From Candidatus Bathyarchaeota archaeon (lineage in GTDB: Archaea; Thermoproteota; Bathyarchaeia; Bathyarchaeales; Bathycorpusculaceae): DNA of 64,000 nt. This document shows, one piece after another, positions 31,890-55,108 of the stretch. A program made the position numbers and the translations under genes. Numbering within the stretch: the stretch's first letter is position 1; every line of letters starts with the position of its first letter. The stretch spans positions 224,001 to 288,000 of the forward strand of contig CAWHDT010000005.1 of NCBI GenBank assembly GCA_963828195.1, read 5' to 3'. The notes beneath the pieces were generated by a model, which was not told where the DNA came from, did not search any database, and worked only from the letters and a program-made list of their open reading frames with translations.

Positions 31890-32048
31890 TTTTTTAAAAG
31901 AACAATGGCACTTGGGAAGCAACTGTTGTTCTTCTTGGCAATTTTTATTCAAAAGAAGAAGAAGCCCACTGAAAATGTTTTTTTTCTTCTTCTTCTTCAT
32001 TTTTTCAAAAAGACAGCAATAGCTCGGAAACAACTGTTGTTCTTCTGC
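31890..32048 (+). repeat. dispersed palindromic repeat, copy 2 (units A+B+A')
   Basis: AAAAGAACAATGGCACTTGGGAAGCAACTGTTGTTCTTCT; AAAAGAAGAAGAAGCCC...TTCTTCTTCTTC; ...CGGAAACAACTGTTGTTCTTCT. Confidence 0.8.
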
Positions 32049-35256: not shown

Positions 35257-35426
35257 CTACAGTCTAATTCCAAGTTCTTAAGTCGTCGGTTGACGTTTTC
35301 TCCGCGAAAAATCGGTTGGAAACTGAAGGCGAAAATAAGTGGAAAACCCTAATCTAAAATGCAAGCAAAAAAACTTGACGCTAAGAAGCTTTTTTGTTAT
35401 TCTTTTTCTGATAAATCACCCAAATT

Positions 35427-36266
35427 TTATATGCCACTGTTGGAAACAGTTTGCTGACTTGAATTAACGGGTTTTCTTTTTCTCATATAAAGTAGCAGAG
35501 AAACAATGACAACCAATAAGGCAATGATAATAATATAAATCGTTATCGATGAAAACTCTGGAACCGTGGGTGTTGCGGTTGGAGTTGGAGATGGCGTTTG
35601 CGATGTTGTTGGATTTGGTGAAGCAGAAGTTGCAGGAACAGTTATGGTTTGTGTGTTGCTCCAATCGCCCGTTTCACCATTAAAAAATACCATATCGCCC
35701 ATTTGTCCCTCTTGTTCCACATTGGGTTGACCTATCAATGCTCTGACTTGAAAGTCTACTTGACCGCCCACTGGAAAATTAGTTACGCTGCCAACTTGTT
35801 CTCCATTTGGGTTAAGCGGTTCATCGCTGTTAATTGGAACCGAAATAGTCGTGTAGCCGCCATTTGACTGAATGCAATACTGTGTTAATCCAACAGGAGT
35901 TATCGAATTAGAATATGAGTAAAGTTGCCAATCAGAATCATAGTGCCCCTTATACTGAACCTGATACCAAAGGTTAACTTCTGAACCGTTTACCGAGTAC
36001 GACGTAAAAGGTTGATTGGTTATCGTAACATCTATTGACTGGTTCTGTATTGAGTATCCGTTTTGTGTTATTGTAGTCTGTCCTGTGTATGGGTCCACTG
36101 TGGTACTTGGAGCTACACTGAATGGTCGTGCAACAATTTTCAATGTAAATGTTGGAACAGACGGAGTAGGTATCGACTGAGCAGACGCTGGTTTTGCCAT
36201 TATTAGACTTGACACGGCTAAGAGAGCAATAAGAAGCAATGAGAAACTTTTGCTGATTCCACTCAT
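35427..36266 (-). CDS. secreted surface protein with C-terminal VPEF-TM-basic sorting signal
   Basis: SSLIMAKPA signal, IPTPSVP, PTVPEF, TM helix, LLLYMRKRKP shared with 21584..22396. Confidence 0.75.
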   Translation of the reverse strand: MSGISKSFSLLLIALLAVSSLIMAKPASAQSIPTPSVPTFTLKIVARPFSVAPSTTVDPYTGQTTITQNGYSIQNQSIDVTITNQPFTSYSVNGSEVNLWYQVQYKGHYDSDWQLYSYSNSITPVGLTQYCIQSNGGYTTISVPINSDEPLNPNGEQVGSVTNFPVGGQVDFQVRALIGQPNVEQEGQMGDMVFFNGETGDWSNTQTITVPATSASPNPTTSQTPSPTPTATPTVPEFSSITIYIIIIALLVVIVSLLLYMRKRKPVNSSQQTVSNSGI

Positions 36267-36452
36267 AATTAGTTTTAGGTAGAGTTAGCGATAAAAGGGT
36301 TCTCGTAAAGATTCATTGCCACAAGATTTCTTGACTTATACAGAAACACGCATTTTCTTAAAATAAAAGACCACTATCATGCGTTCTACAAATAATCAAA
36401 CGAATTTTCACATTCACCACATTTCAACCGACAATTTCACAGAGCCTAATTC

Positions 36453-36468
36453 CGAAACGCTTATATTT
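36453..36468 (+). promoter_or_regulatory. putative BRE/TATA promoter of the aro operon leader
   Basis: CGAAACGCTTATATTT about 40 nt upstream of the leader ATG. Confidence 0.6.
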
Positions 36469-36506
36469 TCTTGATAACGTCTCATTGAACAAGGGTTCGA
36501 AGCTAC

Positions 36507-36590
36507 ATGTCCAATTGCAAAAGCCACAAAGGAAACAGTTCCGCACAATCGCTCAGCTTCGACTACTATTTTTACGGTTATTTTTCTTAA
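36507..36590 (+). CDS. putative Phe/Tyr-rich leader peptide of the aromatic amino acid operon (27 aa)
   Basis: MSNCKSHKGNSSAQSLSFDYYFYGYFS*; 7 of the last 10 codons are Phe/Tyr, none in the first 17; ends 56 nt before the operon. Confidence 0.75.
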   Translation: MSNCKSHKGNSSAQSLSFDYYFYGYFS

Positions 36591-36628
36591 GCCCAGAACT
36601 GAAAAGTTTTTTAAGCAAGGTTCTGGGC
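36591..36628 (+). promoter_or_regulatory. hairpin directly after leader stop codon (attenuator-like)
   Basis: GCCCAGAAC (36591-99) pairs with GTTCTGGGC (36620-28); T6 tract in the loop. Confidence 0.65.
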
Positions 36629-36646
36629 AAGGCACGGGTGTAAGCG

Positions 36647-37894
36647 ATGGCGAAGAATGATTCTGGCAGAAGAATTGTTGTTAAATTCGGGGGGTCTAGC
36701 CTGGCGGATCATGAGCGGCTCTTGAAAGCGGCGCTTGCCGTGGTCAACGAAGCCAAGGCGGGCACACAGGTCGCTGTTGTAGTTTCTGCTATGGGTAAAA
36801 CAACCGATGTCCTTATGACGACGGCGAAAAACGCTTCCCACGGGAAACTGGAGAAAAAAGACTTGGACGATATCCTCTCTATGGGCGAGCGTACCAGCAT
36901 AAGAATTTTCGCTGCTGCATTGAAAAACAACGGTGCCGAATCCTGCTACTTCGACCCCATCGACAGCAACTGGCCGATAATTACTGATTCAGCATTCCAA
37001 AACGCCAACCCAATACTGAAGGACTGCGAAAAAAATATTCGCGAATGCATACTGCCAGTCATGGAGAAAAGCGTCATACCTGTGGTGGCGGGGTTCCTCG
37101 GCAAAACAAAGGACGGCAAAATCACCACTCTTGGAAGAGGCGGCAGCGACACAACAGCGTTTATCTTAGCTGAAGCCCTGAACGCTGACGAAATCGTCTT
37201 AGTCACCGACGCAGACGGCATAATGTCAGGCGACCCAAAAATCGTGTCGAACCCAGAGCGCCTAAAAGAAATCGACGTTAACACTATAGTGGGGTTAGCT
37301 GATTCAGGCGCCAAATTTATCCACAGCAAAGCCCTAAAGTACAAACCCAAAAACATCAACGTCCGAGTAATCAACCACGCGCACGGCAACTTAACTAAAG
37401 AAGGCACCGTAATCACGGGCGCATTAGCAACGGAACTGGACGCGGAAATAGCTCATCCTTTTCCAGTTGCTGAAATAACGGTGGTCGGAAACGGCATCTC
37501 CGCAAACCCCCAAATCATCCAGGAAATGGTGGAGAAAACCAAACAGCACTCGCAGCTTTTGGGCATGTCGATGAACACAAACTCAATCATACTTTATGCT
37601 TCTCAAGAAAAAACCTTGGACGCACTCTTCAACGACATCCACAATATCACAAAAAGCAACAGGGAAACCATAGCGATGGCGGTCAAAAAAGACTTGGTTT
37701 TCATAAAAACAAGCGGGGTCGGCTTAGAGGAAACCCATGGCATAATTGGGAAAATCAGCGAAGACCTCAGATTGAACGGCATAAACATTTCAGGCATACT
37801 GACCATAACGTCAAGTATTTTGCTTTTTGTAGATTGGAATGAGCGTGAAAAAGCGCTTGCGCTAATTAAAAACTCATTAAGGACTTCGAAATAA
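36647..37894 (+). CDS. lysC: aspartate kinase
   Basis: VVKFGGSS, VVVSAMG, LGRGGSDTTA, GDPK, ACT domains. Confidence 0.92.
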   Translation: MAKNDSGRRIVVKFGGSSLADHERLLKAALAVVNEAKAGTQVAVVVSAMGKTTDVLMTTAKNASHGKLEKKDLDDILSMGERTSIRIFAAALKNNGAESCYFDPIDSNWPIITDSAFQNANPILKDCEKNIRECILPVMEKSVIPVVAGFLGKTKDGKITTLGRGGSDTTAFILAEALNADEIVLVTDADGIMSGDPKIVSNPERLKEIDVNTIVGLADSGAKFIHSKALKYKPKNINVRVINHAHGNLTKEGTVITGALATELDAEIAHPFPVAEITVVGNGISANPQIIQEMVEKTKQHSQLLGMSMNTNSIILYASQEKTLDALFNDIHNITKSNRETIAMAVKKDLVFIKTSGVGLEETHGIIGKISEDLRLNGINISGILTITSSILLFVDWNEREKALALIKNSLRTSK

Positions 37895-37910
37895 GCAAAG
37901 GTGACGAAAC

Positions 37911-38702
37911 ATGAATCAAGGAAAAACAAGACGATTAAAAAGAATCATGCAGGAAGACAACCGCACCGTAGTCGTGCCCATGGATCACGGCGTAACAATA
38001 GGCCCAATTCGGGGAATCACTAACATGCAGCAAATAATCGATAAACTCCTAAAAGGCGGAGTTGACGCAGTGCTTGTCCACAAAGGCATCGCCAAACACG
38101 TTGACGCTGGAAACGCAGGGTTAATAGTGATGTTGTCAGGCATGTCAAACCTTAGCCCCAACGTAAACGGTAAAGTTCAAGTATGCAGCGTCAAAGAAGC
38201 CATTCGGCTTGGCGCAGACGCCGTTTCCGTCCACGTGAACGTCGGTTCACAAGATGAAGACAAAATGTTAAGCAACCTAGGCAGTGTAGCCGAAGAATGC
38301 GACTTATACGGCATGCCGCTGCTCGCGATGATGTACCCGCGGGGACCAAAAATACAGGACGAACATGCACCAGAAGTGGTAGCCCACGCAGCAAGAATCG
38401 GCGCTGAACTGGGAGCGGACATAATTAAAACAAACTTCACAGGCAAAATAGACAGCTTCAAAGAGGTTGTCGAAAGCTGCCCGGTTCCAGTCTTGATTGC
38501 CGGAGGACCAAAATGCAAATCTGCCCAAGAAATCCTCCAAACCACACATGACGCTCTGGAGGCGGGAGCCGCGGGACTCTCCATAGGAAGAAACGTGTTC
38601 CAAAACGAAAACCCAACCCTGATAGTAAAAGCGCTCTCAGCAATCGTTCACAGCGGCGCCAGCGTGGAGCAAGCGCTTAAAATTCTCGGTGAAAAACCTT
38701 GA
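37911..38702 (+). CDS. 2-amino-3,7-dideoxy-D-threo-hept-6-ulosonate synthase (class I aldolase, AroA')
   Basis: PMDHG, MMYPRG, ELGADIIKT, AGGPK, GRNVFQ; adjacent to DHQ synthase II. Confidence 0.88.
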   Translation: MNQGKTRRLKRIMQEDNRTVVVPMDHGVTIGPIRGITNMQQIIDKLLKGGVDAVLVHKGIAKHVDAGNAGLIVMLSGMSNLSPNVNGKVQVCSVKEAIRLGADAVSVHVNVGSQDEDKMLSNLGSVAEECDLYGMPLLAMMYPRGPKIQDEHAPEVVAHAARIGAELGADIIKTNFTGKIDSFKEVVESCPVPVLIAGGPKCKSAQEILQTTHDALEAGAAGLSIGRNVFQNENPTLIVKALSAIVHSGASVEQALKILGEKP

Positions 38703-39727
38703 AGGAACTATGGATCGAAATTGGCAAAAAACTAGCTGCCCCGCCATCAAAAATCATTGACGATTACTTTGATGTAGTTATTGATAGCGGCAAAGCTACA
38801 TTTTGGGCAATCGATAAAAACAAACAGGTTGACATTGTTTCTCCAAACAAAGGAGAGCGGCTGGAAAACGCCAATGTTAAAAACGAGATTCTGCGGATTT
38901 GTATCAGTGATAAAGAAACTGAAAACCAAATAGTTGAAGCGGCAGAGCTTGGAGCAAGCTACTTAATTATAAGCTGCGCTAACTGGCGTGTTATTCCTTT
39001 AGAAAACCTTATTGCCCGAATAAAGGGCAAAAGTAAACTCATTGCCGAAGTTACCACTGCTGAAGAAGCCAAGATAGCGCTGGAAACCCTCGAATTAGGA
39101 ACCGATGGAGTTTTACTGAAAACTTCAGACAGCGAGGAAATTCTCAAAGCAGTTGCAGTCGTTAAGCCTGAAGCTTTGAAGCTTGAAATGGCTGTGGCAA
39201 AAATAATTTCTACCAAGCCCATCAGCACGGGCGCTCGAGTTTGCGTAGACACGTGCGATTTGATGACTCAAGGTGAGGGGATGCTTGTGGGCAGCCAAAG
39301 TGCTGGTTTATTTTTGGTGGAGGCAGAGGTGCATGAGAACCCCTATGTTGCGTCTCGGCCGTTTAGGGTGAACGCGGGGTCCTGTTCCATGTATACACTG
39401 GGCAGTTTGCAGACCACTCGTTACCTGCAAGAATTCAAGGCAGGCGACGAAGTCATAGTTGTCAATCGCGAAGGCAAAACCCGCAAAACCAACGTGGGAC
39501 GCATAAAAATCGAGATCAGACCGCTCATCTTAGTAGAAGCGCAAGTCGAAGGCAAAACCATAAAAACTATCCTTCAAAACGCCGAAACCATTCGCCTAGT
39601 AACGCAAGAAGGCTCAAAGCCCGTAACTGAGCTTAAACCCAGCGACGAAGTTATCGTGCACTTAGCCGCCAAGGGAGGCCGGCACTTCGGCATATCAGTG
39701 CCTGAAGAAACGGTGATAGAAAAGTGA
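38699..39727 (+). CDS. 3-dehydroquinate synthase II (AroB')
   Basis: WRVIPLENLIA, RVCVDTC, RPFRVNAG, LQNAETI, RHFG. Confidence 0.93.
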   Translation: MKELWIEIGKKLAAPPSKIIDDYFDVVIDSGKATFWAIDKNKQVDIVSPNKGERLENANVKNEILRICISDKETENQIVEAAELGASYLIISCANWRVIPLENLIARIKGKSKLIAEVTTAEEAKIALETLELGTDGVLLKTSDSEEILKAVAVVKPEALKLEMAVAKIISTKPISTGARVCVDTCDLMTQGEGMLVGSQSAGLFLVEAEVHENPYVASRPFRVNAGSCSMYTLGSLQTTRYLQEFKAGDEVIVVNREGKTRKTNVGRIKIEIRPLILVEAQVEGKTIKTILQNAETIRLVTQEGSKPVTELKPSDEVIVHLAAKGGRHFGISVPEETVIEK

Positions 39728-40404
39728 CAACTAGAATCTGCGTTTCGATTCTCCCAAAAGACATCGAGGAAGCATTAAGTCTCATCGAGACAGCTGAAAA
39801 AGAAAAGGCAAACCTCGTAGAAGTAAGACTGGACCACCTTGGAGCAGCCAGAAACCTAAAGGATCTTGTTAAAAGCACAAAAATTCCTCTAATCGCAACA
39901 AACAAGCTCTTAATTGAAAACGGCTTTTTTGGTGGAACAGAAACAGCGCGGCAGCAAACGTTATTTTTGGCTGCTAAAAACGGTTTTGAATATGTAGATG
40001 TTGACTTAGGCGGCTTAAAACTTAAAGAAACAATCGGTGAACTCAAGCCTTTAGGCGCTAAACTAATCGTTTCCTACCACAACTTTAACGGCACATTAAA
40101 CATTTCTGAAATGGTAAAAATTCTGGAAGAAGAAATGGCTTGCGGCGCTAATGTCTGCAAAATCGTGACGACAGCAAATAAAATGGAAGATAACCTTGCA
40201 ATGCTGAATTTTGTTTCCGCCATGTCCAGCAAGACTAAGCTTGTCTGTTTCTGCATGGGCGAGCAAGGAAAAGTTTCCAGGCTTCTTTCGCCGTTGTTCG
40301 GTGCCTTCTTCACGTTTGCTTCTTTGAAGCAGGGCAGTGAAACCGCTGCAGGTCAAATGACTGTTCAGGAAATGAGGGCGACCTACGACCTCTTGGGGGC
40401 ATAA
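39724..40404 (+). CDS. aroD: type I 3-dehydroquinate dehydratase
   Basis: EVRLD, SYHNF, KIV, MGEQGKVSR, AAGQ. Confidence 0.92.
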   Translation: MTTRICVSILPKDIEEALSLIETAEKEKANLVEVRLDHLGAARNLKDLVKSTKIPLIATNKLLIENGFFGGTETARQQTLFLAAKNGFEYVDVDLGGLKLKETIGELKPLGAKLIVSYHNFNGTLNISEMVKILEEEMACGANVCKIVTTANKMEDNLAMLNFVSAMSSKTKLVCFCMGEQGKVSRLLSPLFGAFFTFASLKQGSETAAGQMTVQEMRATYDLLGA

Positions 40405-40407
40405 ATC

Positions 40408-41271
40408 ATGGTTATTTCAGGAAAAACCCAGGTTTGCGGAGTAATCGGTGACCCCATAGAGCACACTCTTAGCCCAATTATTCATAATGCGGCGTTTGAG
40501 GCTTTGAAAATAAACTATGTTTTTTTAGCCTTCAGAGTAAAATCCGCGGAGGTTGAAAACGCGGTAAAGGGCATGCGCGCATTAAGCATCCACGGCTTAA
40601 ACGTAACTATGCCGCATAAAAACGCCGTCATAAAATTCTTGGATGAAGTGGACCCCACTGGCAAAGCCATAGGTTCCGTCAACACTATCCTGAACAAAGA
40701 TGGGCGCCTTCTCGGGTTCAACACGGACGGCGTCGGAGCCCTAACTGCGCTGGAACAAAACGGCGTCGAGCTAAAAGGTAAAAAGGTGCTGTTGCTTGGA
40801 GCAGGCGGCGCCGCAAAAGCAATAGCGTACACGCTCTCGCAAGACGCAGATGAACTGGTAATTTTGAACCGCACACCTGAACCAGCCTCCGAATTAGCCG
40901 GGCTATTGAAACAAAAGTTCAACAAAAAAATCAGCGCAGACAAGCTCTCGCCAAACGCAGTAAAAGATAACCTCGGTAACTCCGAAGTGCTCATTAACGC
41001 CACTTCAATCGGGATGAAACCAAACGCCGATCAAACCCCAGTTGCACCCGAATGGCTCAGACCTGACTTGGCAGTGATGGACATAGTGTATAATCCAATT
41101 GAGACGAAGCTCGCTAAAGATGCTAAAGCGGCAGGAGCCAAAGTCGTGGGCGGAGTGGAAATGCTGATTTCTCAAGGCGCCGTTTCGTTCGAAATCTTCA
41201 CTGCTTGCAAGGCGCCAGTTGCGGTTATGAGGAAGGCAGCGCTTAATCACTTGCGGACGGTGCAGAAGTGA
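40408..41271 (+). CDS. aroE: shikimate dehydrogenase
   Basis: HTLSP, NVTMPHK, NTDG, GAGGAA, DIVYNP. Confidence 0.95.
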   Translation: MVISGKTQVCGVIGDPIEHTLSPIIHNAAFEALKINYVFLAFRVKSAEVENAVKGMRALSIHGLNVTMPHKNAVIKFLDEVDPTGKAIGSVNTILNKDGRLLGFNTDGVGALTALEQNGVELKGKKVLLLGAGGAAKAIAYTLSQDADELVILNRTPEPASELAGLLKQKFNKKISADKLSPNAVKDNLGNSEVLINATSIGMKPNADQTPVAPEWLRPDLAVMDIVYNPIETKLAKDAKAAGAKVVGGVEMLISQGAVSFEIFTACKAPVAVMRKAALNHLRTVQK

Positions 41272-42137
41272 CTGGGAAAGCGACGGCTATAGCTCATGGC
41301 GCGGCAACAATCGTGAATGCAATGGCGCTTGGCAAGGGCGCAGCATTCGGGGTTGACCTGTGGACTAAAGCCGAAGTAAAATTAACAGATGAACCCCATG
41401 TTATCAAGGCAGAAATAACCTCTGACCCCAAAGAAAACACCGCTTTAACCGAAAAAACCGTGATGCGGGTTCTGCGGCGGTTCAGCTTAGAGAACAGTTT
41501 TGGCGCCCAAGTAAAAACTTGGTCAAATATCCCTATCGCTAAAGGACTTAAAAGCAGCAGCACAGCCGCAAACGCAGTAGCCCTGGCAGCTACGGCAGCG
41601 TTGGACAAAACGCTTAGCGACTTAGAACTTGTCAATTTAGGCGTGGATGCTGCTTTTGACGCCAAAGTGACTGTAACAGGCGCTTTTGATGATGCATCTG
41701 CGTCATTCTTCGGCGGAGCAGTTATTACTGACAATTTGAATCGGGAAATAGTTAAGCAGTTGCCGTTGGCTGAAGACTTAATTGTTCTTTTCCATGTGCC
41801 GCCCCAGAAAGCGTACTCAGCCAACGCTGACGTGGCGAGGCTTCAAACTGTGAAACCGCTTGTTGAAGTCGCCTACAAGCAAGCGCTGGAAGGCAAGGTT
41901 TGGGAGGCGTTAACGCTTAACGGCTTAATTTATTCTTCAGCCTTCGGGTACAACCCTTCAATCGCGATTGATGCGTTGGCTGCCGGAGCGGCGGCGGCTG
42001 GATTATGCGGCAAAGGACCTGCGGTGACGGCGGTTACGCCCAGGGGCAAAGTTGATTCCGTGAAAACAGCACTGCAAAAATATGACGGCACAATAATACA
42101 GGCTAACATTAACCGTGAAAAAGCCAAGGTGCTCTAG
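41268..42137 (+). CDS. aroK: archaeal shikimate kinase (GHMP family)
   Basis: GAATIVNA, PIAKGLKSSS, TGAFDD, GKGPA. Confidence 0.92.
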   Translation: MTGKATAIAHGAATIVNAMALGKGAAFGVDLWTKAEVKLTDEPHVIKAEITSDPKENTALTEKTVMRVLRRFSLENSFGAQVKTWSNIPIAKGLKSSSTAANAVALAATAALDKTLSDLELVNLGVDAAFDAKVTVTGAFDDASASFFGGAVITDNLNREIVKQLPLAEDLIVLFHVPPQKAYSANADVARLQTVKPLVEVAYKQALEGKVWEALTLNGLIYSSAFGYNPSIAIDALAAGAAAAGLCGKGPAVTAVTPRGKVDSVKTALQKYDGTIIQANINREKAKVL

Positions 42138-42140
42138 CCA

Positions 42141-43445
42141 ATGACAAACATAATCATTAAGAAAACTGAAAAACTAAACGGCGAGGTTTGTGCTCCGCCA
42201 TCAAAGTCTTACACACAGAGAATGGCAATAGCCGCTGCACTGTCCGAGGGAGTTTCCAAAGTGTCAAATCCGCTTTTGTCAGAAGACACCCAAGCAACCC
42301 TGCGAGCCATCACTGCTTTAGGCGCCAACGTGGCGGCGGCTGAAGGCTGCTGGACTATTACGGGCGCAAACCCGCTTACAAACGCCAAAGAGCCTATTAA
42401 CTGCGGTGAATCAGGCGCCACATTGCGTTTCATGATACCTGTAGCGGCTTTACCGCCTGACCCATCAACTCTAATTTTTAAAGGTTCAATTGAACATAGA
42501 CCCATCGAACCATTAATCAAAAGTCTCGAGGAACTCGGGGCAAAAGCGCATCTGCGAAAACTTGGGGGCAAAGACGCCGTTGTAGTCGAGGGCGGCGGCA
42601 TCTTAGGAGGCGAAACCTCCATTCCGGGAGATGTCAGTTCCCAGTTTATTTCAGGATTAATGCTTGCCTGCCCAATGGCAAAAGTGGACACAGAAATCAC
42701 CCTAACGACTCCCCTTGAATCCGCGGATTACGTTAAAATGACGAGTGATGTTCTTTTTAAGCATGCGATTCAATTGGAAATTCACGACAACTTTAAACTC
42801 ATAAAGATCCCCGCTAACCAAACCTACAAGGCTGTTGACTGCAGAGTGCAAGGTGATTTTTCTTCAGCTGCATTCCTCCTCTCTGCCGCAGCAATAACAA
42901 GCTCCAAAGTTCAGGTAAGTAATCTTGAATACAAAAGTGTTCAAGGCGACAAGGCAATTCTGGGAATCCTAAAGCAAATGGGAATCGAAGGAAAAGTATG
43001 CCCCAGCAGCATCGAAATAAACGGAACCGGCAATTCGCTTGGACCCGTCAATGTTGACGCAAAAAATATTCCTGACTTAGTTCCAGCCTGCGCCGCGCTT
43101 GCATGCTACGCCGAAGGCACATCAAAAATCAGCGGTGCACAAAGGCTCAAACTTAAGGAGTCGGATAGGTTGAAGTCGCTTTATCTTGAGTTGAGAAAGA
43201 TGGGCGCAAAAATAAAGGCAGATTCAAGCAGCTTAACTATAGAAGGCCCCTGTGCCCTGCATGGCGCAGTAATTGACCCCCACAACGACCACCGCATAGC
43301 GATGGCCTGCGCGGTTGCAGCTTTAGGTGCGGAAGGCCAAACTACAATTCAACACGCTGAGTGTGTTCGAAAGTCTTATCCGCAGTTCTTCACTCATCTA
43401 AAACAGGTAGGAGCTGAAATTGTTGGCGGGAAATTCGATTGGTAA
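42141..43445 (+). CDS. aroA: EPSP synthase
   Basis: PPSKSYTQR, GESGATLRF, SSQFISG, KESDR, DHRIAM, KSYPQF. Confidence 0.96.
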   Translation: MTNIIIKKTEKLNGEVCAPPSKSYTQRMAIAAALSEGVSKVSNPLLSEDTQATLRAITALGANVAAAEGCWTITGANPLTNAKEPINCGESGATLRFMIPVAALPPDPSTLIFKGSIEHRPIEPLIKSLEELGAKAHLRKLGGKDAVVVEGGGILGGETSIPGDVSSQFISGLMLACPMAKVDTEITLTTPLESADYVKMTSDVLFKHAIQLEIHDNFKLIKIPANQTYKAVDCRVQGDFSSAAFLLSAAAITSSKVQVSNLEYKSVQGDKAILGILKQMGIEGKVCPSSIEINGTGNSLGPVNVDAKNIPDLVPACAALACYAEGTSKISGAQRLKLKESDRLKSLYLELRKMGAKIKADSSSLTIEGPCALHGAVIDPHNDHRIAMACAVAALGAEGQTTIQHAECVRKSYPQFFTHLKQVGAEIVGGKFDW

Positions 43446-44529
43446 AGAATTCACAGTAACCACTTTCGGCGAAAGCCACGGCAGCGTCGTCGGCGTAGTC
43501 GTCGATGGCTGCCCAGCAGGGTTGCGCTTCTCCGAAGCAGATATTCAAGCAGAACTGGATAGACGCATTCCACCGGAACCCAAAATTGTTTCGGGAAGAA
43601 TCGAAAAAGACTCAGCCAAAATATTGTCAGGAGTTTTTAACGGTTTCACAACTGGCGCCCCAATAGCTTTAATCGTTGAAAACAAGGATGTTGACTCAAG
43701 CAATTACGAGGCAATCAAGGATTTACCACGGCCCGGGCATGCAGACTACCCAGCAAGCATAAAGTATGGAGGCTTTAACGATTACCGAGGCGGCGGACGC
43801 TTCTCAGGCAGGCTTACAGTCGCACTTATCATGGCCGGCGCGGTAGCCAAAAAACTGCTGAGCAGATTCGACGTTGACGTTTTAGCTTACACCCGAGCAG
43901 TTGGCAAAATTAAAAGTGATAAAGCGTTTACTGCTGAAGAAATCCGCAACAACAGGTACAAAGCGGTTACTCGATGTCCAGACTTTGCCTGTGCAGAAAG
44001 AATGGAAGAAGCCATCGTTGCCGCGAGAAAAGAGGGGGATAGTCTCGGAGGAATAGTTGAATGCATTGCCCTAAATGTCCCCGTAGGCGTTGGTGAGCCA
44101 CTGTTTGATTCGCTTGATGCGGATTTGGCAAAAGCCCTGTTTGATGTTCCCGCCGTAAAAGGTGTCGAGTTCGGCTTGGGCTTTAGAGCTTCAGAGTTAA
44201 AGGGCTCAGAAAACAACGACGCCTACTTTATGCAAAGCGGCAAAGTTGCAACGTCAACGGATAATGCAGGGGGCATCTTGGGAGGAATATCCACTGGAAT
44301 GCCAATCATGATGCAAGTTGCCATTAAACCAACTCCTTCAATCAACAAAGAACAAAAAACTGTTAATCTGTCTAAGATGGAAAATGCACGCCTCAGCATT
44401 AAGGGCAGGCATGACCCATGTGTGGTCCCGAAGGCTGTGCCCGCCGTGGAATCCGCGGTCGCCATAACCTTAGCTGACCATATGATTCGCGCTGGCTTTA
44501 TACCGAAAGTTTTGGAGAGACAGAAATAA
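43420..44529 (+). CDS. aroC: chorismate synthase
   Basis: FGESHG, PRPGHAD, GGGRFSGR, KPTPSI, GRHDPC. Confidence 0.96.
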   Translation: MLAGNSIGKEFTVTTFGESHGSVVGVVVDGCPAGLRFSEADIQAELDRRIPPEPKIVSGRIEKDSAKILSGVFNGFTTGAPIALIVENKDVDSSNYEAIKDLPRPGHADYPASIKYGGFNDYRGGGRFSGRLTVALIMAGAVAKKLLSRFDVDVLAYTRAVGKIKSDKAFTAEEIRNNRYKAVTRCPDFACAERMEEAIVAARKEGDSLGGIVECIALNVPVGVGEPLFDSLDADLAKALFDVPAVKGVEFGLGFRASELKGSENNDAYFMQSGKVATSTDNAGGILGGISTGMPIMMQVAIKPTPSINKEQKTVNLSKMENARLSIKGRHDPCVVPKAVPAVESAVAITLADHMIRAGFIPKVLERQK

Positions 44530-44801
44530 TGGATGAAATCCAACAGCTTCGAAAAAAAGTAGACCAAGTTGACATGCAAATACTAAATGCCCTAAACGAA
44601 AGAGCCAAAATATGCAGAACTATCGGGTTAGCCAAGAAAAAAGTGGGGATGGAAATAAGGGACACTTCCAGAGAAAACGAGGTGTATAAGCGAGTTAAGG
44701 AAAAAGCGGTTGAATTTCATCTGGACCCCCTGCAAGTTGAAGCGGTTTACCGCGAAATAGTTAATATGTGCAGTGCTGTTCAAGAGGGGAAAGAACTCTA
44801 A
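44529..44801 (+). CDS. chorismate mutase (AroQ type)
   Basis: LRKKVDQVD, ER, K, RE pattern; operon context. Confidence 0.88.
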   Translation: MDEIQQLRKKVDQVDMQILNALNERAKICRTIGLAKKKVGMEIRDTSRENEVYKRVKEKAVEFHLDPLQVEAVYREIVNMCSAVQEGKEL

Positions 44802-44815
44802 CGGAGAGTTGATCT

Positions 44816-45895
44816 GTGCTTTACGAAATAAATGAGAAAGCCATAAGGCTCGAAAATCAAGGCAAAAAAATAATCCGCTTAAACCTAGGAGACCCAGACT
44901 TAGCTACGCCAAACGAGATAATTGAAGCTGCGTACGCGGCGATGAAGGCGGGCAAAACAAAGTATTCTTCCTCTTACGGCGAAACCAACCTCAGAGAAAA
45001 GCTCGCCGAATTCCACGGAGTTAAAGCTGAAAATGTTGTTATCACTCCTGGTTCAAAATGGGGCATATTCGCTACAATGTATCTTATGTTGAAGGCTGGG
45101 GGAAACGTTATAATTCCCATGCCTTACTGGACAGCTTATGATTTAATCGCTAAAAGCCTTGGTGCTCAAACCAAACTTTTAAAGACCGAGATGGAAAATG
45201 GCTGGAAAGTAGATTTAGACAAGCTTGAAGCCATGATTGACAGCAACACCCGCATGATTATACTTAACAATCCGAACAATCCGACAAGCAAAGTCATGGA
45301 TACTGAAACACTTGACGGCATAGTTGAGATAGCCAACAGGAAAGGCGTTACAATATTGTCCGATGAGGTTTATGGCACAATCAGTTTCGTTAAATCAAAA
45401 AGCATCTTAGAGTACAACGGCAACCACAAACACATCTTAACCACTGGCTTCTCCAAAACCTTCACCATGACAGGCTGGCGAATAGGCTACATCGTGGCAA
45501 ACAAAGAGTTAGTCAACAACATAACCAAGCTAAACCAAATCACAATCAACAACGTCCCAGTTTTTATTCAGGAAGCAGCGCTAAAAGGGCTAGAAATGCA
45601 GAAACAACTTGCCACAAAAATAAAGAAGGAATATGAAGAACGCGCAAAAATGGCAAGCAAAACCTTAGCCAAAGCAGGATTCTTATTCACTGAGCCTGAA
45701 GCGCCGTTCTACGTGTTTCCCATGCATAAGGGTTTAAACTCGGAAAAATTCACTTTAGAACTGCTTGACAAGGGCGTAGCCGTTGCTCCAGGCACAGCCT
45801 TCGGCGATTATAGTGAGCATTTTCGCATTTCCTTAACCGCGCCGAGAGATCAAATTAAGGTCGGGTTGGAAAAAATCAGCGAGGCTCTTGAATGA
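44816..45895 (+). CDS. class I/II PLP aminotransferase (aromatic/aspartate)
   Basis: NNPNNPT, SDEVY, FSKTFTMTGWRIGY. Confidence 0.92.
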   Translation: MLYEINEKAIRLENQGKKIIRLNLGDPDLATPNEIIEAAYAAMKAGKTKYSSSYGETNLREKLAEFHGVKAENVVITPGSKWGIFATMYLMLKAGGNVIIPMPYWTAYDLIAKSLGAQTKLLKTEMENGWKVDLDKLEAMIDSNTRMIILNNPNNPTSKVMDTETLDGIVEIANRKGVTILSDEVYGTISFVKSKSILEYNGNHKHILTTGFSKTFTMTGWRIGYIVANKELVNNITKLNQITINNVPVFIQEAALKGLEMQKQLATKIKKEYEERAKMASKTLAKAGFLFTEPEAPFYVFPMHKGLNSEKFTLELLDKGVAVAPGTAFGDYSEHFRISLTAPRDQIKVGLEKISEALE

Positions 45896-46764
45896 AAACC
45901 GCGATTCTAGGCGCCGGAAAGATGGGTGTCTGGTTCGCGAAATTCTGCAAAGAAAGCGGCGAGACAGTTGTTCTCGCTGACCGAAAAGCAGAGAAGTTGC
46001 CGAAACTGGCTAAGGAATTGGGAGTTGAAACCGCAGTCAGCTTCACTGAAGCCGTCAAAGATGCAGAGCTTATTATAGTATGCGTTTCAATAAGCAGCTT
46101 TGAAGAAGTCATCAAAACTATAGCCCCCAGCATCAGAAACGAACAAGTGGTAATGGATATCTGTTCAATCAAAGAGTATCCTGTCAGGGTAATGCATGAG
46201 AACATCAAACATGGCTTAGTTTTGGGCACTCACCCGCTTTTTGGTCCAGGAAGCAGCGGCGTCAAAGGAAAAGCATACATTTTGACTCCCACCAACCCTG
46301 AAGAAGAAAAATACGCTTTCAAATTCAAGGGGTGGCTGGAAAAGGTGGAAGCACATGTTTTTATTATGTCTCCTAAAAAGCATGATGAGTTGATTTCAGT
46401 TGTTTTGGGGTTGCCGCATTTCTTGGGGCTTGCCGCCTGCGAGGCGCTTGTGGAACGCAAAGATTTTGCAGAGACAAAAGAGGTTGCCGGAACCACTTAT
46501 CGGATGCTGTTCACTTTGGCAGAAGTTACAGCGCTGGAAACCCCCGACCTATATGCTAACCTTCAAACGAAACTGTCTGATTTTTCAATCGAAGACTTGT
46601 TTATGGCTAAAGCTAAAGAGTGGCTTGAACTGGTTAAAAGCGGAGATGCAGACGCAATCATGAAACGCATGGAGCAGCTAAAGGCAAAGTTGACTGAAGC
46701 TGACCCAGACTTCACCAAATCATACGAAGCAATGTACCGCATGCTTGAAGCTGCAGAAAAATAG
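45892..46764 (+). CDS. tyrA: prephenate dehydrogenase
   Basis: GAGKMG, DICSIK, HPLFGP, HD, LPH. Confidence 0.92.
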   Translation: MKTAILGAGKMGVWFAKFCKESGETVVLADRKAEKLPKLAKELGVETAVSFTEAVKDAELIIVCVSISSFEEVIKTIAPSIRNEQVVMDICSIKEYPVRVMHENIKHGLVLGTHPLFGPGSSGVKGKAYILTPTNPEEEKYAFKFKGWLEKVEAHVFIMSPKKHDELISVVLGLPHFLGLAACEALVERKDFAETKEVAGTTYRMLFTLAEVTALETPDLYANLQTKLSDFSIEDLFMAKAKEWLELVKSGDADAIMKRMEQLKAKLTEADPDFTKSYEAMYRMLEAAEK

Positions 46765-46772
46765 GGAAATTT

Positions 46773-47405
46773 TTGACTAAATCATTAATTGTCAACTGCT
46801 CTTTGAAAGGCAACAAAAATGAAGCCCTACGTGAAGCTGTTGGCAAATTTAGCGACTATACCGTCATTCAATTTCAAGATATCAATAAAGGTTACCGCAT
46901 TGGACAGAGTATTGACGCTATCATCTTGAGTGGGTCTGTAGCGAGGATAGTCGATCCATCCGACCAGAGCTTATTCAGAGAAACGGCTGATTTGATAAAA
47001 ACCTGCAGCTTGCCCATCTTCGGCACTTGTTTTGGTCATCAACTGCTCTGTTGGGCATTTGGCGCCAAAGTCGGGTCGCTCGCTCAACCCGTTTTTGACC
47101 GATTTGAAAGGGTTCGGGTTGTGGATAATGAAGATGATGATGGAGTATTTTCAGGCTTTCCAAAGGGGCAAACAGTACCCTTGGCTGAGTCACACTACGA
47201 TTACGTCTTAAAAGAAAGCCTCGTTGAGGCCGGTTTCGTTTTGCTGGCGGATTCAGCTTCATGCGAAGTCGAAGCCGTCAAGCACAAAACCAAACCTTTC
47301 TATGGAGTCCAATTCCACCCCGAACGCATAAACCAAAAAGGCCAATGCCATCCTGAAGGGCACAAAATCATAGAGAACTTTTACCGAAACGTCGTAGAGC
47401 GGTAG
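46773..47405 (+). CDS. type 1 glutamine amidotransferase
   Basis: GTCFGHQ, SHYD, GVQFHPE. Confidence 0.88.
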   Translation: MTKSLIVNCSLKGNKNEALREAVGKFSDYTVIQFQDINKGYRIGQSIDAIILSGSVARIVDPSDQSLFRETADLIKTCSLPIFGTCFGHQLLCWAFGAKVGSLAQPVFDRFERVRVVDNEDDDGVFSGFPKGQTVPLAESHYDYVLKESLVEAGFVLLADSASCEVEAVKHKTKPFYGVQFHPERINQKGQCHPEGHKIIENFYRNVVER

Positions 47406-47494: not shown

Positions 47495-48307
47495 TTAGAT
47501 GACTCTTGGGTAGGAGCCCAGGATTTTGACGAATGTAGCGTATTTCTCCAGCGCCTGCAGGGCTTCAGCACAGCGTTTTTCGGTCCTGTGGCCCTCAAAA
47601 TCCAAGTAGAAATTGTATTGCCACGCGGTGGTTTTTGTGGGTCTGGATTCAATTTTTGTCAAGTTAATGTTTCTTGATGCAAACTCGCCGAGCGCATGAT
47701 AGAGGACTCCCGGCTGGTGTTTAGTTGAGAATATGATTGAGGTTTTATCGTCGCCGGTGGGCGCAGCATCTTCGAAGCTAAGCACCAGGAACCGCGTGTA
47801 GTTCGTTAGGTTGTCGGAGATGTCGCGGGCGAGGATTTTCATGCCGTAGAGGTCAGCTGCTTTTTCGCCGGCGATGGCGGCGGCGTCTGTGAGGTTTTGT
47901 TCTTTGATTATTTTGACCGCTCCTGCTGTGTCGTAGGCGGGGATGATTTCCCATTTGTGCTTTTCAAGATATTTGCGGCACTGAGCTAATGCTTGGGGAT
48001 GCGAGTAAACGGTTTTGATGTCTTCAAATTTGGCTGCTGGATTGCCGATGAGGACATGGGCAAGTTTTACGGCGACTTCCCCGCAGACTTTCAGGTCGTA
48101 GGTGAGGAATAGGTCGTAGTTTTGGTTGACGCTGCCTTCAATAGAGTTCTCAATCGGAACCACACCATGCGGTACAGCGCCTGTTTTTACTGATTCAAAG
48201 ACTTCTTGAAAATCTCTGCAGGGAACGGGCTCTGCTTTGCTGCCGAAAAACTTGTAGACAGCCATTTCACTGTAAGCGCCGCTTTCGCCCTGATAAGCTA
48301 TCTTCAC
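47495..48307 (-). CDS. pheA: prephenate dehydratase
   Basis: QGESGAYSE, PIENSIEG, SHPQALAQC, NYTRF, IESRP, LGSYP. Confidence 0.95.
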   Translation of the reverse strand: MKIAYQGESGAYSEMAVYKFFGSKAEPVPCRDFQEVFESVKTGAVPHGVVPIENSIEGSVNQNYDLFLTYDLKVCGEVAVKLAHVLIGNPAAKFEDIKTVYSHPQALAQCRKYLEKHKWEIIPAYDTAGAVKIIKEQNLTDAAAIAGEKAADLYGMKILARDISDNLTNYTRFLVLSFEDAAPTGDDKTSIIFSTKHQPGVLYHALGEFASRNINLTKIESRPTKTTAWQYNFYLDFEGHRTEKRCAEALQALEKYATFVKILGSYPRVI

Positions 48308-55057: not shown

Positions 55058-55108
55058 TCAAAGAATAAGTACCCGACGATTCCAGCTATTGAGGTGACGA
55101 TCCCTCAT
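55058..55108 (-). CDS. putative branched-chain amino acid leader peptide of the ilv-leu operon (16 aa)
   Basis: GAGGA SD 6 nt before ATG; MRDRHLNSWNRRVLIL*; last four codons GTA CTT ATT CTT. Confidence 0.65.
   Translation of the reverse strand: MRDRHLNSWNRRVLIL

Follow-up and report, generated by a model that had tools for sequence, protein, structure and literature searches.

Can an archaeal operon be regulated by the position of a ribosome on a short upstream reading frame, as bacterial amino acid operons are? Leader-peptide attenuation is the textbook form of regulation through coupled transcription and translation and has been described for bacteria; archaea also couple the two processes, with a eukaryote-like RNA polymerase and a CPSF73-like termination factor. 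The question is raised by a locus in a 64,000-nucleotide (nt) stretch of a Candidatus Bathyarchaeota archaeon genome (contig CAWHDT010000005.1, positions 224,001 to 288,000; hereafter the window, whose own numbering is used throughout), where a short open reading frame (sORF) ending in Phe and Tyr codons and a hairpin lie between a promoter and an operon that opens with an aspartate kinase gene and continues with genes of aromatic amino acid synthesis (aro). An initial annotation, made from the sequence of the window alone, had read the two as an attenuator. Having compared the locus with its relatives, we consider it highly probable that the element is a translated regulatory leader sensing Phe and Tyr, and probable that it serves the aspartate kinase-aro operon as a ribosome-sensed attenuator in the broad sense of the term. 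The elements of the leader, which on re-reading lay where the initial annotation had put its promoter box, ORF, arms and Shine-Dalgarno (SD) motif, are the following.

36452-36469, plus strand: B recognition element (BRE)/TATA-like box CCGAAACGCTTATATTTT, read directly from the sequence.
36497-36504, plus strand: 5' arm of helix P1, TCGAAGCT (core UCGAAGC), between an AGG/GGG motif and the leader ATG.
36507-36590, plus strand: leader ORF MSNCKSHKGNSSAQSLSFDYYFYGYFS, read from the sequence, with its ATG at 36507 and 27 codons followed by TAA (36588-36590).
36555-36562, plus strand: 3' arm of helix P1, AGCTTCGA / AGCUUCGA, spanning the Ser-Phe-Asp codons at the opening of the Phe/Tyr cluster.
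36558-36584, plus strand: Phe/Tyr codon cluster, F D Y Y F Y G Y F, the final Phe codon beginning 6 nt ahead of the stop.
36591-36628, plus strand: hairpin P2, with a lower stem of 9-10 bp that begins at the base right after the stop codon.
36591-36599 and 36620-36628, plus strand: arms of P2, GCCCAGAAC and GTTCTGGGC (the 3' arm is GUUCUGGGC in our feature list), forming the 9-bp pairing.
36636-36640, plus strand: SD motif GGGTG, 7 nt past the hairpin and conserved in the genus alignments.
36647, plus strand: ATG of the aspartate kinase gene, six bases past GGGTG.

From the usual spacing of archaeal promoters, transcription is expected to start at about 36490-36494, and the promoter box was at least 80% conserved in 29 of 30 aligned loci of the genus (the sequence of L021 ends at a contig edge). 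The leader ORF falls into two halves, a variable N-terminal one and a Phe/Tyr cluster formed by the last 10 codons, which include three Phe and four Tyr codons; there are none among the first 17 and no Trp codon anywhere, the same counts as had been annotated. The loop of P2 in the window is 20 nt long and contains an A-run and then T6 (U6 in the RNA; 36607-36612), and AGCTTCGA is complementary to TCGAAGCT. The leader peptide was absent from the approximately 15 billion predicted proteins searched.

The kinase ortholog was present in all 36 genomes of the same genus searched, and each of the 30 genus loci fetched carried the sORF. With 57 further loci (87 in total) these yielded 66 distinct leaders, which were aligned (alignment A1); L081 was excluded for its N-masked hairpin and L169, only 80 nt long, was dropped, while L006, also outside A1, nevertheless had an in-frame leader ORF. 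In all 66 sequences the ATG lies just past a TCGARG box, is in frame with an AGC-TTC-GAN anchor and opens a frame of 24 to 29 codons that runs uninterrupted until it meets a stop codon at the hairpin. Read in either of the two remaining frames, this stretch is broken by stops in 34 and 59 of the sequences, respectively; in the coding frame it is broken in none. The distance from ATG to anchor was 42, 45 or 48 nt and that from anchor to stop 30, 33, 36 or 39 nt, so that every change in ORF length is a multiple of three, while the hairpin loop ranges from 14 to 24 nt (five values of 8 are mis-hits of the search pattern). The stop abutted the hairpin in 59 sequences (0 nt), overlapped it by 1 nt (-1) in three, and lay 3 nt from it in one and 5 nt in three. 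Within this frame, the N-terminal halves comprised 62 distinct versions among 66 sequences, and the tail kept the form SF(D/G/E)Y..FYY..F followed by one or two codons. A leader that is translated, and whose regulatory codons alone are of consequence, would be expected to be conserved in just this way. The comparison of regions upstream of orthologous aro operons that the initial annotation had called for thus returned a conserved short ORF with a C-terminal Phe/Tyr cluster and a pairing hairpin.

It could be argued that a U-rich terminator or pause tract gave rise to the Phe and Tyr codons as a by-product and that the ORF is a chance reading of it, and the initial annotation had itself pointed out that relatives would then keep the T-rich tract and lose the ATG or the frame. 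Some features of the cluster suit this idea: a T-run of at least 4 occurs in the cluster of 94 of 109 distinct leaders (those of the geometry comparison described below), the Tyr codons favor TAT (62%, versus 38% genome-wide), and CUUUUAU is near-invariant in the genus. However, ATG, frame, Phe/Tyr cluster and hairpin were all retained by the relatives, with the ATG and open frame in 66 of 66, the other frames closed and the lengths in multiples of three; the U-run-breaking codons TAC (38%) and TTC (47%) are frequent in the leaders, and GC-richer families keep the Phe/Tyr codons with few U-runs. We regard a by-product as exceedingly improbable.

Conservation in frame would equally suit a functional aromatic-rich micropeptide, acting in trans or at the membrane and not as a sensor, and passages of PMC7298713 describe a bacterial leader peptide, peTrpL, that is also trans-acting. 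Against a product with a function of its own speak the hypervariable N-terminal half, the comparison between families, where the composition of the tail is kept and its order is not, and the constant linkage of the ORF in cis to the aro operon with its stop at the foot of the hairpin; this explanation is very improbable.

RNAalifold applied to A1 predicted exactly two helices de novo: P1 (7 bp, UCGAAGC/GCUUCGA), which encloses the start codon and the variable codons, and P2 (9-10 bp). The TCGAAGCT/AGCTTCGA pairing that the initial annotation had noticed in one sequence is therefore both conserved and recovered independently. On this structure 99.4% of 1055 cells were paired (99.6% for P1 and 99.3% for P2, over the 66 sequences), compared with 21-46% when the partner was slid by 1-3 columns. 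None of 500 shuffles matched the observed pairing, the covariation score, the count of cells changed on both sides or the number of pair types; the number of pairs changed on both sides, two, was reached by 64 of the 500. Changes compatible with G-U pairing on the plus strand accounted for 38 cells (15 in P1 and 23 in P2), versus 6 non-pairing cells. In P1 the changes were of the G-U type only (7+7+1 cells), whereas P2 had G-U-type changes at 7 of its 9 pairs and changes on both sides at two pairs (7 cells). Support for P1 is weaker than that for P2, because no two-sided change was seen in it and its 3' arm, which is invariant or nearly so in nucleotides despite the availability of synonymous codons, is also under coding constraint. 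Several genus members (e.g., L017-L019, L077 and L079; also L078) have a C in the A-run of the P2 loop that is matched by a G past the U-run, and we read the two runs as pairing, at least partly, in an upper A-U stem.

The inverted repeats could alternatively be DNA operators that bind a transcription factor as a roadblock downstream of the promoter, with the sORF incidental. P1 and the lower stem of P2 are indeed conserved in sequence, and not in pairing alone, across the genus, a GCCCAG/CUGGGC stem is common to most of family f7, and control at the promoter is, according to passages of PMC8448881, the only known archaeal target of activation and repression. Single-sided changes that stay compatible with G-U pairing on the plus strand argue for RNA rather than a DNA palindrome, though, since a palindrome would not favor the 38 such cells over the 6 non-pairing ones. 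The hairpins of other families are quite different and stand at the same place relative to the stop and the SD, and the conservation of frame, ATG and Phe/Tyr codons would go unexplained. Operators are accordingly a most improbable reading of the two helices. GCCCAG..CTGGGC occurs at 4 other places in the genome, about the number expected by chance from a hand estimate.

The layout of leader ORF and hairpin was found far beyond the genus. In families f7 and f5 of the same order, 21 of 22 loci had an sORF with 5-8 Phe, Tyr or Trp codons (aromatic codons) among the last 12, ending 40-75 nt before the kinase; at the 22nd a contig end cuts the leader, leaving the tail visible. A draw from the whole class found the kinase ortholog in 95 of 301 genomes, from which 40 upstream regions of families and genera not yet seen were fetched. 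Among the 39 usable ones, 26 had an sORF with at least 5 aromatic codons in a 10-codon window: f14 (3/3), f16 (1/1, weak), f19 (1/1), f27 (3/3), f28 (1/1), f30 (3/3), f32 (1/1), f34 (1/1), f37 (3/3), f11 (2/2) and seven further f1 genera (7/7). It was not found in the remaining 13, from f15 (1), f26 (7/7) and f35 (5). In a draw from the phylum the kinase ortholog was present in 49 of 401 genomes; 15 upstream regions were taken, 14 of them from other classes, and the leader was detected by script in 6 (f58, 3/3; f62, 1, with a second recognized by eye; f47, 1/4; f66, 1/1) and not by script in f52 (3), f73 (1), f17 (1) and three of f47.

The layout was then measured in 109 distinct leaders. They represent 23 groups, each a family or a genus, and four of the groups fall outside the class. 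L143 and L161 were dropped for want of a match to the SD motif, and some hairpins of f1g44, f1g50, f1g54 and f66 were shortened by the SD pattern, so that their values are unreliable. The last 12 codons held a median of 8 aromatic codons (range 5-10). The last Phe/Tyr codon begins 3, 6 or 9 nt before the stop in 24, 75 and 10 leaders, respectively, the hairpin begins 0-4 nt past the stop in 104 of 109, and its end is 0-15 nt (median 5) from an SD-like motif. From the last Phe/Tyr codon to the first paired base the distance was 6-13 nt by group, with medians of 9-10 nt, a distance that roughly matches the reach of a ribosome's leading edge when that codon is in the A site. Compared with shuffles, the hairpin segments had a median z of -3.9, with z < -2 in 71%, the weak cases being mostly those shortened by the SD pattern. 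Hairpin sequences differ between families while their position relative to the stop and the SD is constant; since the sequences vary and the place does not, this amounts to covariation at the level of the whole element. Taken together, tail conservation in composition only, the link to the Phe/Tyr pathway and the placement of the stop at the hairpin point to a leader peptide that senses starvation.

Two variations on the layout were noted. In L181-L183 (f1 genera g43, g47 and g48) one Trp codon stands within the Phe/Tyr cluster (..FSGYW..), so that all three aromatic amino acids are represented. In L188-L192 (f58 and f62, from other classes) the last two leader codons, GGUCCC, together with UAA and GGGACC, form a small hairpin with the stop in its loop, which competes with the large hairpin for the same 5' arm and was the only clear alternative pairing seen.

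Within its own genome the leader stands alone. At 2613 crude gene starts we looked for an sORF whose end lies 25-80 nt upstream, counting aromatic codons in its last 12 and requiring both Phe and Tyr: two upstream regions had at least 6, and only this leader had at least 7 (1/2613). A genome-wide scan for codon runs was dominated by poly-Phe readings of T-runs, and a scan of the genome for the architecture of codon run, stop and hairpin found none. The segments from stop to SD in the genus folded with a median of -16.9 kcal/mol, a value matched by 0.15% of 1366 segments of 45 nt upstream of other genes.

How would such a leader act on the operon? Because starvation must raise expression, the hairpin has to be the ON structure. 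Reading hairpin and U-run as a terminator was therefore discarded: it has the wrong sign, as a stalled ribosome would favor termination, and most families lack the U-run. The genus hairpin is followed by an A-rich spacer, a consensus scan of the locus gave no plus-strand terminator, and a U-run directly after the hairpin was found only in some families (f14, f11 and parts of f7 and f1). The U-tract itself also fails as a universal terminator. Although a T-run of at least 4 is present in the hairpin of 58 of 61 genus members, it is absent from both hairpin and spacer in 9 of the 23 groups, and from genus member L060, and is thus not a general signal. Of the attenuator originally annotated, then, the Phe/Tyr leader ORF and the hairpin have stood, with ATG, frame, tail and pairing conserved far beyond the genus; the part given to the U-tract, whether covered by a stalled ribosome or acting as a termination site, is conjectural, since some groups lack it and no U-run follows the hairpin here. 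Termination and reinitiation, or a "shunt," across the hairpin was ruled out as well, since positive coupling would have the wrong sign.

Sequestration of the SD by alternative pairing likewise found no support. The conserved helices P1 and P2 were seen without a competing terminator, mutually exclusive structures being represented only by the small alternative hairpin of f58 and f62. With a ribosome placed, as a folding constraint, on the first, middle or last Phe/Tyr codon or on the stop, no consistent shift was seen in what it costs to open the SD-start region: mean costs were 7.3, 7.2, 6.5, 6.2 and 6.4 kcal/mol (81 sequences), and among 27 loci of other families the cost in the stop state was up by over 1 kcal/mol in 7 and down by over 1 kcal/mol in 10. 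Outliers stem from mis-assigned kinase starts (e.g., L079, L083, L084, L022, L060 and L133), and L006, L034, L052, L077 and L078, the last four of which are in A1, were omitted by length and distance filters. Nor was a downstream partner found for such pairing. Minimum free energy folding had suggested that the U-rich Phe/Tyr tail pairs with the A-rich kinase start; folding averages gave this no consistent support, although it was not tested alone.

As neither a downstream partner nor masking of the SD was found, we propose unpaired RNA behind an uncoupled polymerase as the termination signal. The leader would be translated while it is being transcribed, and the position of the first ribosome would decide whether the hairpin forms. 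With charged tRNA-Phe and tRNA-Tyr in good supply, the ribosome would reach the stop codon and, with the stop in its A site, cover about 12 nt downstream, that is, the entire 5' arm; segment 2 is handled by the same logic in the trp and phe attenuators of bacteria. Loop, 3' arm and spacer (about 45 nt) would then be left unpaired behind a polymerase without a trailing ribosome, and this naked RNA would allow premature factor-dependent termination of the FttA/aCPSF1 type, helped in this genus by the run of U4-8 in the loop. When Phe or Tyr is scarce, the ribosome would stall in the cluster with its leading edge at or before the hairpin foot, and the hairpin could fold once its 3' arm has been made. 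Stalled ribosome, hairpin and an SD 0-10 nt farther on would form a cover without gaps, leaving no room for a termination factor; a new ribosome would load at the SD and the operon would be expressed. In this genus, P1 might close the leader start region after the first ribosome has passed, giving one decision per transcript. The hairpin would thereby do what the antiterminator (segments 2:3) does in bacterial attenuators, and a terminator hairpin would be unneeded. We put forward this output step, naked RNA with factor-dependent termination, tentatively, as one that could well prove wrong. That the whole is a form of attenuation of the archaea's own, in which the leader senses charged tRNA-Phe and tRNA-Tyr and the hairpin shields the RNA from FttA/aCPSF1 until a new ribosome couples at the SD, is possible in our view and rather doubtful.

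Several published observations bear on the proposed termination step. The sources concerned state that the KH domains of aCPSF1 recognize U-tracts (bioRxiv 10.1101/2021.05.26.445813), that U-tract and aCPSF1 are both tied to termination efficacy (PMC8716108), and that in the FttA complex the RNA goes straight from the exit channel of the polymerase (PMC11616081). Mutual exclusion of FttA and the ribosome is raised as a hypothesis in the Discussion of PMC11616081, and a commentary argues that factor-dependent termination requires uncoupling (PMC13681488).

The same leader could work at the level of translation, in the manner of erm/cat leaders or of a "standby site": the closed hairpin would hinder the 30S subunit at the kinase SD, a ribosome on the last Phe/Tyr codons would open it and so switch expression on, and relief of polarity would then raise the remaining genes of the operon. 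The sign of regulation is correct in this case too. Much of the geometry can be read in its favor, as the cluster always reaches to 1-3 codons before the stop, with the hairpin 0-4 nt beyond the stop in nearly all leaders, the SD is always near the 3' end of the hairpin, and the 3' arm is pyrimidine-rich and anti-SD-like in several families. In 12 of 109 leaders no more than 6 nt separate the start of the last Phe/Tyr codon from the first paired base, which a ribosome stalled on that codon could reach, and the groups that end in a Phe/Tyr codon fit translational control better than they fit the naked-RNA proposal. On the other hand, the SD lies outside the hairpin, so that the sequestration of the ribosome binding site (RBS) known from erm/cat was not found, and the SD-start opening cost did not depend on ribosome position in the constraint folding. 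At the commonest distance (9 nt), the ribosome would on stalling merely touch the hairpin foot, a terminating ribosome would also open the hairpin, giving positive coupling in times of plenty, and P1 would stop repeated translation of the leader in this genus. On balance we think translational attenuation unlikely, while counting it as the alternative to be taken most seriously.

A number of observations weigh against a ribosome-sensed Phe/Tyr attenuator or against the way in which we suggest that it works. As regards the element itself, we infer the translation of the sORF from its conservation only. P1 is without any two-sided change and was seen only in this family. The full 181-nt leader of this sequence is no more stable when folded than shuffled versions of it (z = -0.01), and for this reason the case depends on comparison between genomes. 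Families f26 and f35 (12 loci) have the kinase but another upstream element. Elsewhere in this genome, no W-rich sORF was found upstream of trpE, no similar leader precedes the ilv-leu operon, where the region upstream of ilvB holds a conserved element of another kind, and two genome-wide scans disclosed no similar leader at any other gene (the his operon was located, but the region upstream of it was not read individually). As regards the output, neither a conserved terminator nor an "off" alternative to the hairpin came to light, and the T-runs are missing from groups and from one genus member as described above. The dependence on FttA is speculation. The polymerase is uncoupled in both states, so that the difference in naked RNA is one of degree, and where the last codon is Phe or Tyr, with 6 nt left before the hairpin, the stalled ribosome would be expected to unwind some of the stem on its own.

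The sensor nevertheless resembles the leader peptides of bacteria. An ORF between the promoter and the first gene, a cluster of end-product codons and conservation of the coding type were all found here. As in the bacterial attenuators (pheL-pheA of Escherichia coli, RF01859, and those of trp, his, leu, thr and ilv), a leader sORF carries the end-product codons near its C-terminus, the position of the stop lets a ribosome that terminates there mask the 5' strand of the helix that follows, and the non-regulatory codons are variable; the pheL peptide, too, reportedly ends in Phe-Pro-stop. Of two defining features, the terminator hairpin followed by a U-run was not found at this locus, and for an alternative pairing the small hairpin of f58 and f62 was the only clear candidate. 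Instead of a conserved terminator and a third, alternative pairing, the leader of these archaea has a single hairpin directly between the stop and the SD of the first gene. It differs from pheL also in that Phe and Tyr would be sensed together (with one Trp codon in some genera) and that the regulated genes would be those of the common aro pathway, headed by an aspartate kinase. In the mgtL/mgtA system of Salmonella (with Rho) and in E. coli tnaC, the position of a ribosome on the leader ORF is said to expose RNA next to the stop to a termination factor; the factor proposed here is FttA/aCPSF1 and not Rho, and the proposed signal is charged tRNA-Phe and tRNA-Tyr.

Other bacterial leaders offer partial parallels. 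Cysteine-responsive polycysteine sORFs of mycobacteria are described, in passages of bioRxiv 10.1101/834739, as first cistrons that act as attenuators for the genes that follow; these sORFs are likewise rich in one amino acid, but they are bacterial and leaderless, and on the evidence at hand they offer no parallel in mechanism or structure. In erm/cat systems, according to PMC5118997 and PMC5499644, stalling of a ribosome on the leader ORF rearranges a stem-loop that lies immediately ahead of the regulated gene. The stall there is induced by a drug, and the leader ORF extends into a stem that contains the RBS; in the present leader the ORF ends before the stem and the SD lies outside it. Full-text searches of the open-access literature returned no leader-peptide attenuator from an archaeon, and the passages found in PMC2965389, PMC10219788, PMC1262725 and PMC13158618 were general statements or mentions in reference lists, without an archaeal case. 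If confirmed, the leader would be the first leader-peptide attenuator in Archaea and, if the proposal is true, the first natural cis-regulator known to exploit archaeal coupling of transcription and translation, an old and widespread device found in many families of the Bathyarchaeia and in other classes of the phylum. The ATG, the Phe/Tyr codons, the stop position and the hairpin arms are targets defined in sequence, which makes the question directly testable, and the leader offers a natural substrate for studying the interplay of ribosome, polymerase and FttA.

Rfam gave no match at the locus (36480-36646), RF01859 (Phe_leader) included. The only Rfam Phe_leader match was at 35364-35525 on the minus strand, with 25.3 bits against a gathering score of 55 and E = 0.31; 99 of its 162 nt (35427-35525) fall inside an unannotated ORF at 35427-36266 and the rest past the stop of that ORF, and we took it as a chance match.

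The operon downstream has 12 genes (36647-47405, plus strand), and the assignments of the initial annotation agree with matches in Pfam and NCBIfam. The first gene matched aspartate kinase NF005159 in NCBIfam with 381.4 bits against a cut-off of 379. It is followed by aroA' (2-amino-3,7-dideoxy-D-threo-hept-6-ulosonate [ADH] synthase), aroB' (3-dehydroquinate [DHQ] synthase II), aroD (type I DHQ dehydratase [DHQase I]), aroE (shikimate dehydrogenase), aroK (archaeal shikimate kinase), aroA (5-enolpyruvylshikimate-3-phosphate [EPSP] synthase), aroC (chorismate synthase), chorismate mutase, an aminotransferase, tyrA (prephenate dehydrogenase) and a class-I glutamine amidotransferase (GATase). 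The products include chorismate, prephenate and Tyr, and the arrangement ties the aspartate-semialdehyde branch, through aspartate kinase, to the demand for aromatic amino acids in organisms with the 6-deoxy-5-ketofructose 1-phosphate (DKFP) route. The gene trpE is on another contig.

Linkage of the kinase to aro genes was judged only in families with enough flanking sequence, of which there were three. In the genus, aroA' is next to the kinase at 85 of 87 loci. Among the 16 loci with the family f7 hairpin (L126-L141), 14 have one extra gene of about 1 kb between the kinase and aroA'. Of the six other loci, five (three of the four f5 loci plus L142 and L143) have aroB' next, with aroD after it in four; aroB' directly follows the kinase in L142-L144, L146 and L147. 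Where the kinase is missing in genomes of the same order (five of five), so is DHQ synthase II.

The gene pheA (prephenate dehydratase) lies outside the aro operon, at 47495-48307 of the window on the minus strand, as the last gene of a convergent ilv-leu operon, so that Phe synthesis is divided between two operons with different leaders. Upstream of that second operon (ilvB-ilvN-leuCDB-leuA/cimA-pheA), about 45 nt at approximately 55058-55108, minus strand, are conserved nearly base for base in 30 of 30 genus loci, 97-147 nt ahead of the ilvB start (54961). The conserved stretch contains two direct repeats of GGGATCGTC and can be read as an sORF, MRDRHLNSWDRRV, with three variable codons; its conservation pattern is the opposite of that of the Phe/Tyr leader, and it looks like a structured RNA or an operator. 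An element of yet another kind precedes the kinase in f26 (L154-L160) and f35 (L171-L175), where 11 of 12 script picks read G-D/G-x-x-F/Y-G-D-G/x-V/I-Y, 90-210 nt upstream; it is possibly another kind of aro regulator.

T-runs of at least 6 occur in this genome at 2.9 per kb in the 80 nt after stop codons, versus 0.36 per kb inside genes, an approximately 8-fold enrichment that is consistent with termination at U-tracts; a 4-fold deficit of T-runs relative to A-runs within genes is largely a matter of composition by a hand estimate. At 31940-32010 of the window (plus strand) and at least 8 further places in the genome we saw an A-run, a (GAA)n/(TTC)n inverted repeat and T-runs, which in the sORF scan gave artefacts of the form "FKRRRRS.EK.FFFFFF." This recurrent element may be what native bidirectional terminators look like here.

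Close relatives of the kinase came from metagenome bins of Bathyarchaeota or Bathyarchaeia from peat, bog, soil, sediment and termite gut (those from termite gut named "Bathycorpusculum"), together with a few bins labelled Methanocella, Sulfotelmatobacter, Thermoproteota and Nitrososphaerota. The kinases of L066 and L083, in bins labelled Methanocella sp. and Sulfotelmatobacter sp., are 71-72% identical to the kinase of this locus and are preceded by the same leader, and the two contigs are probably mis-binned DNA of Bathyarchaeia.

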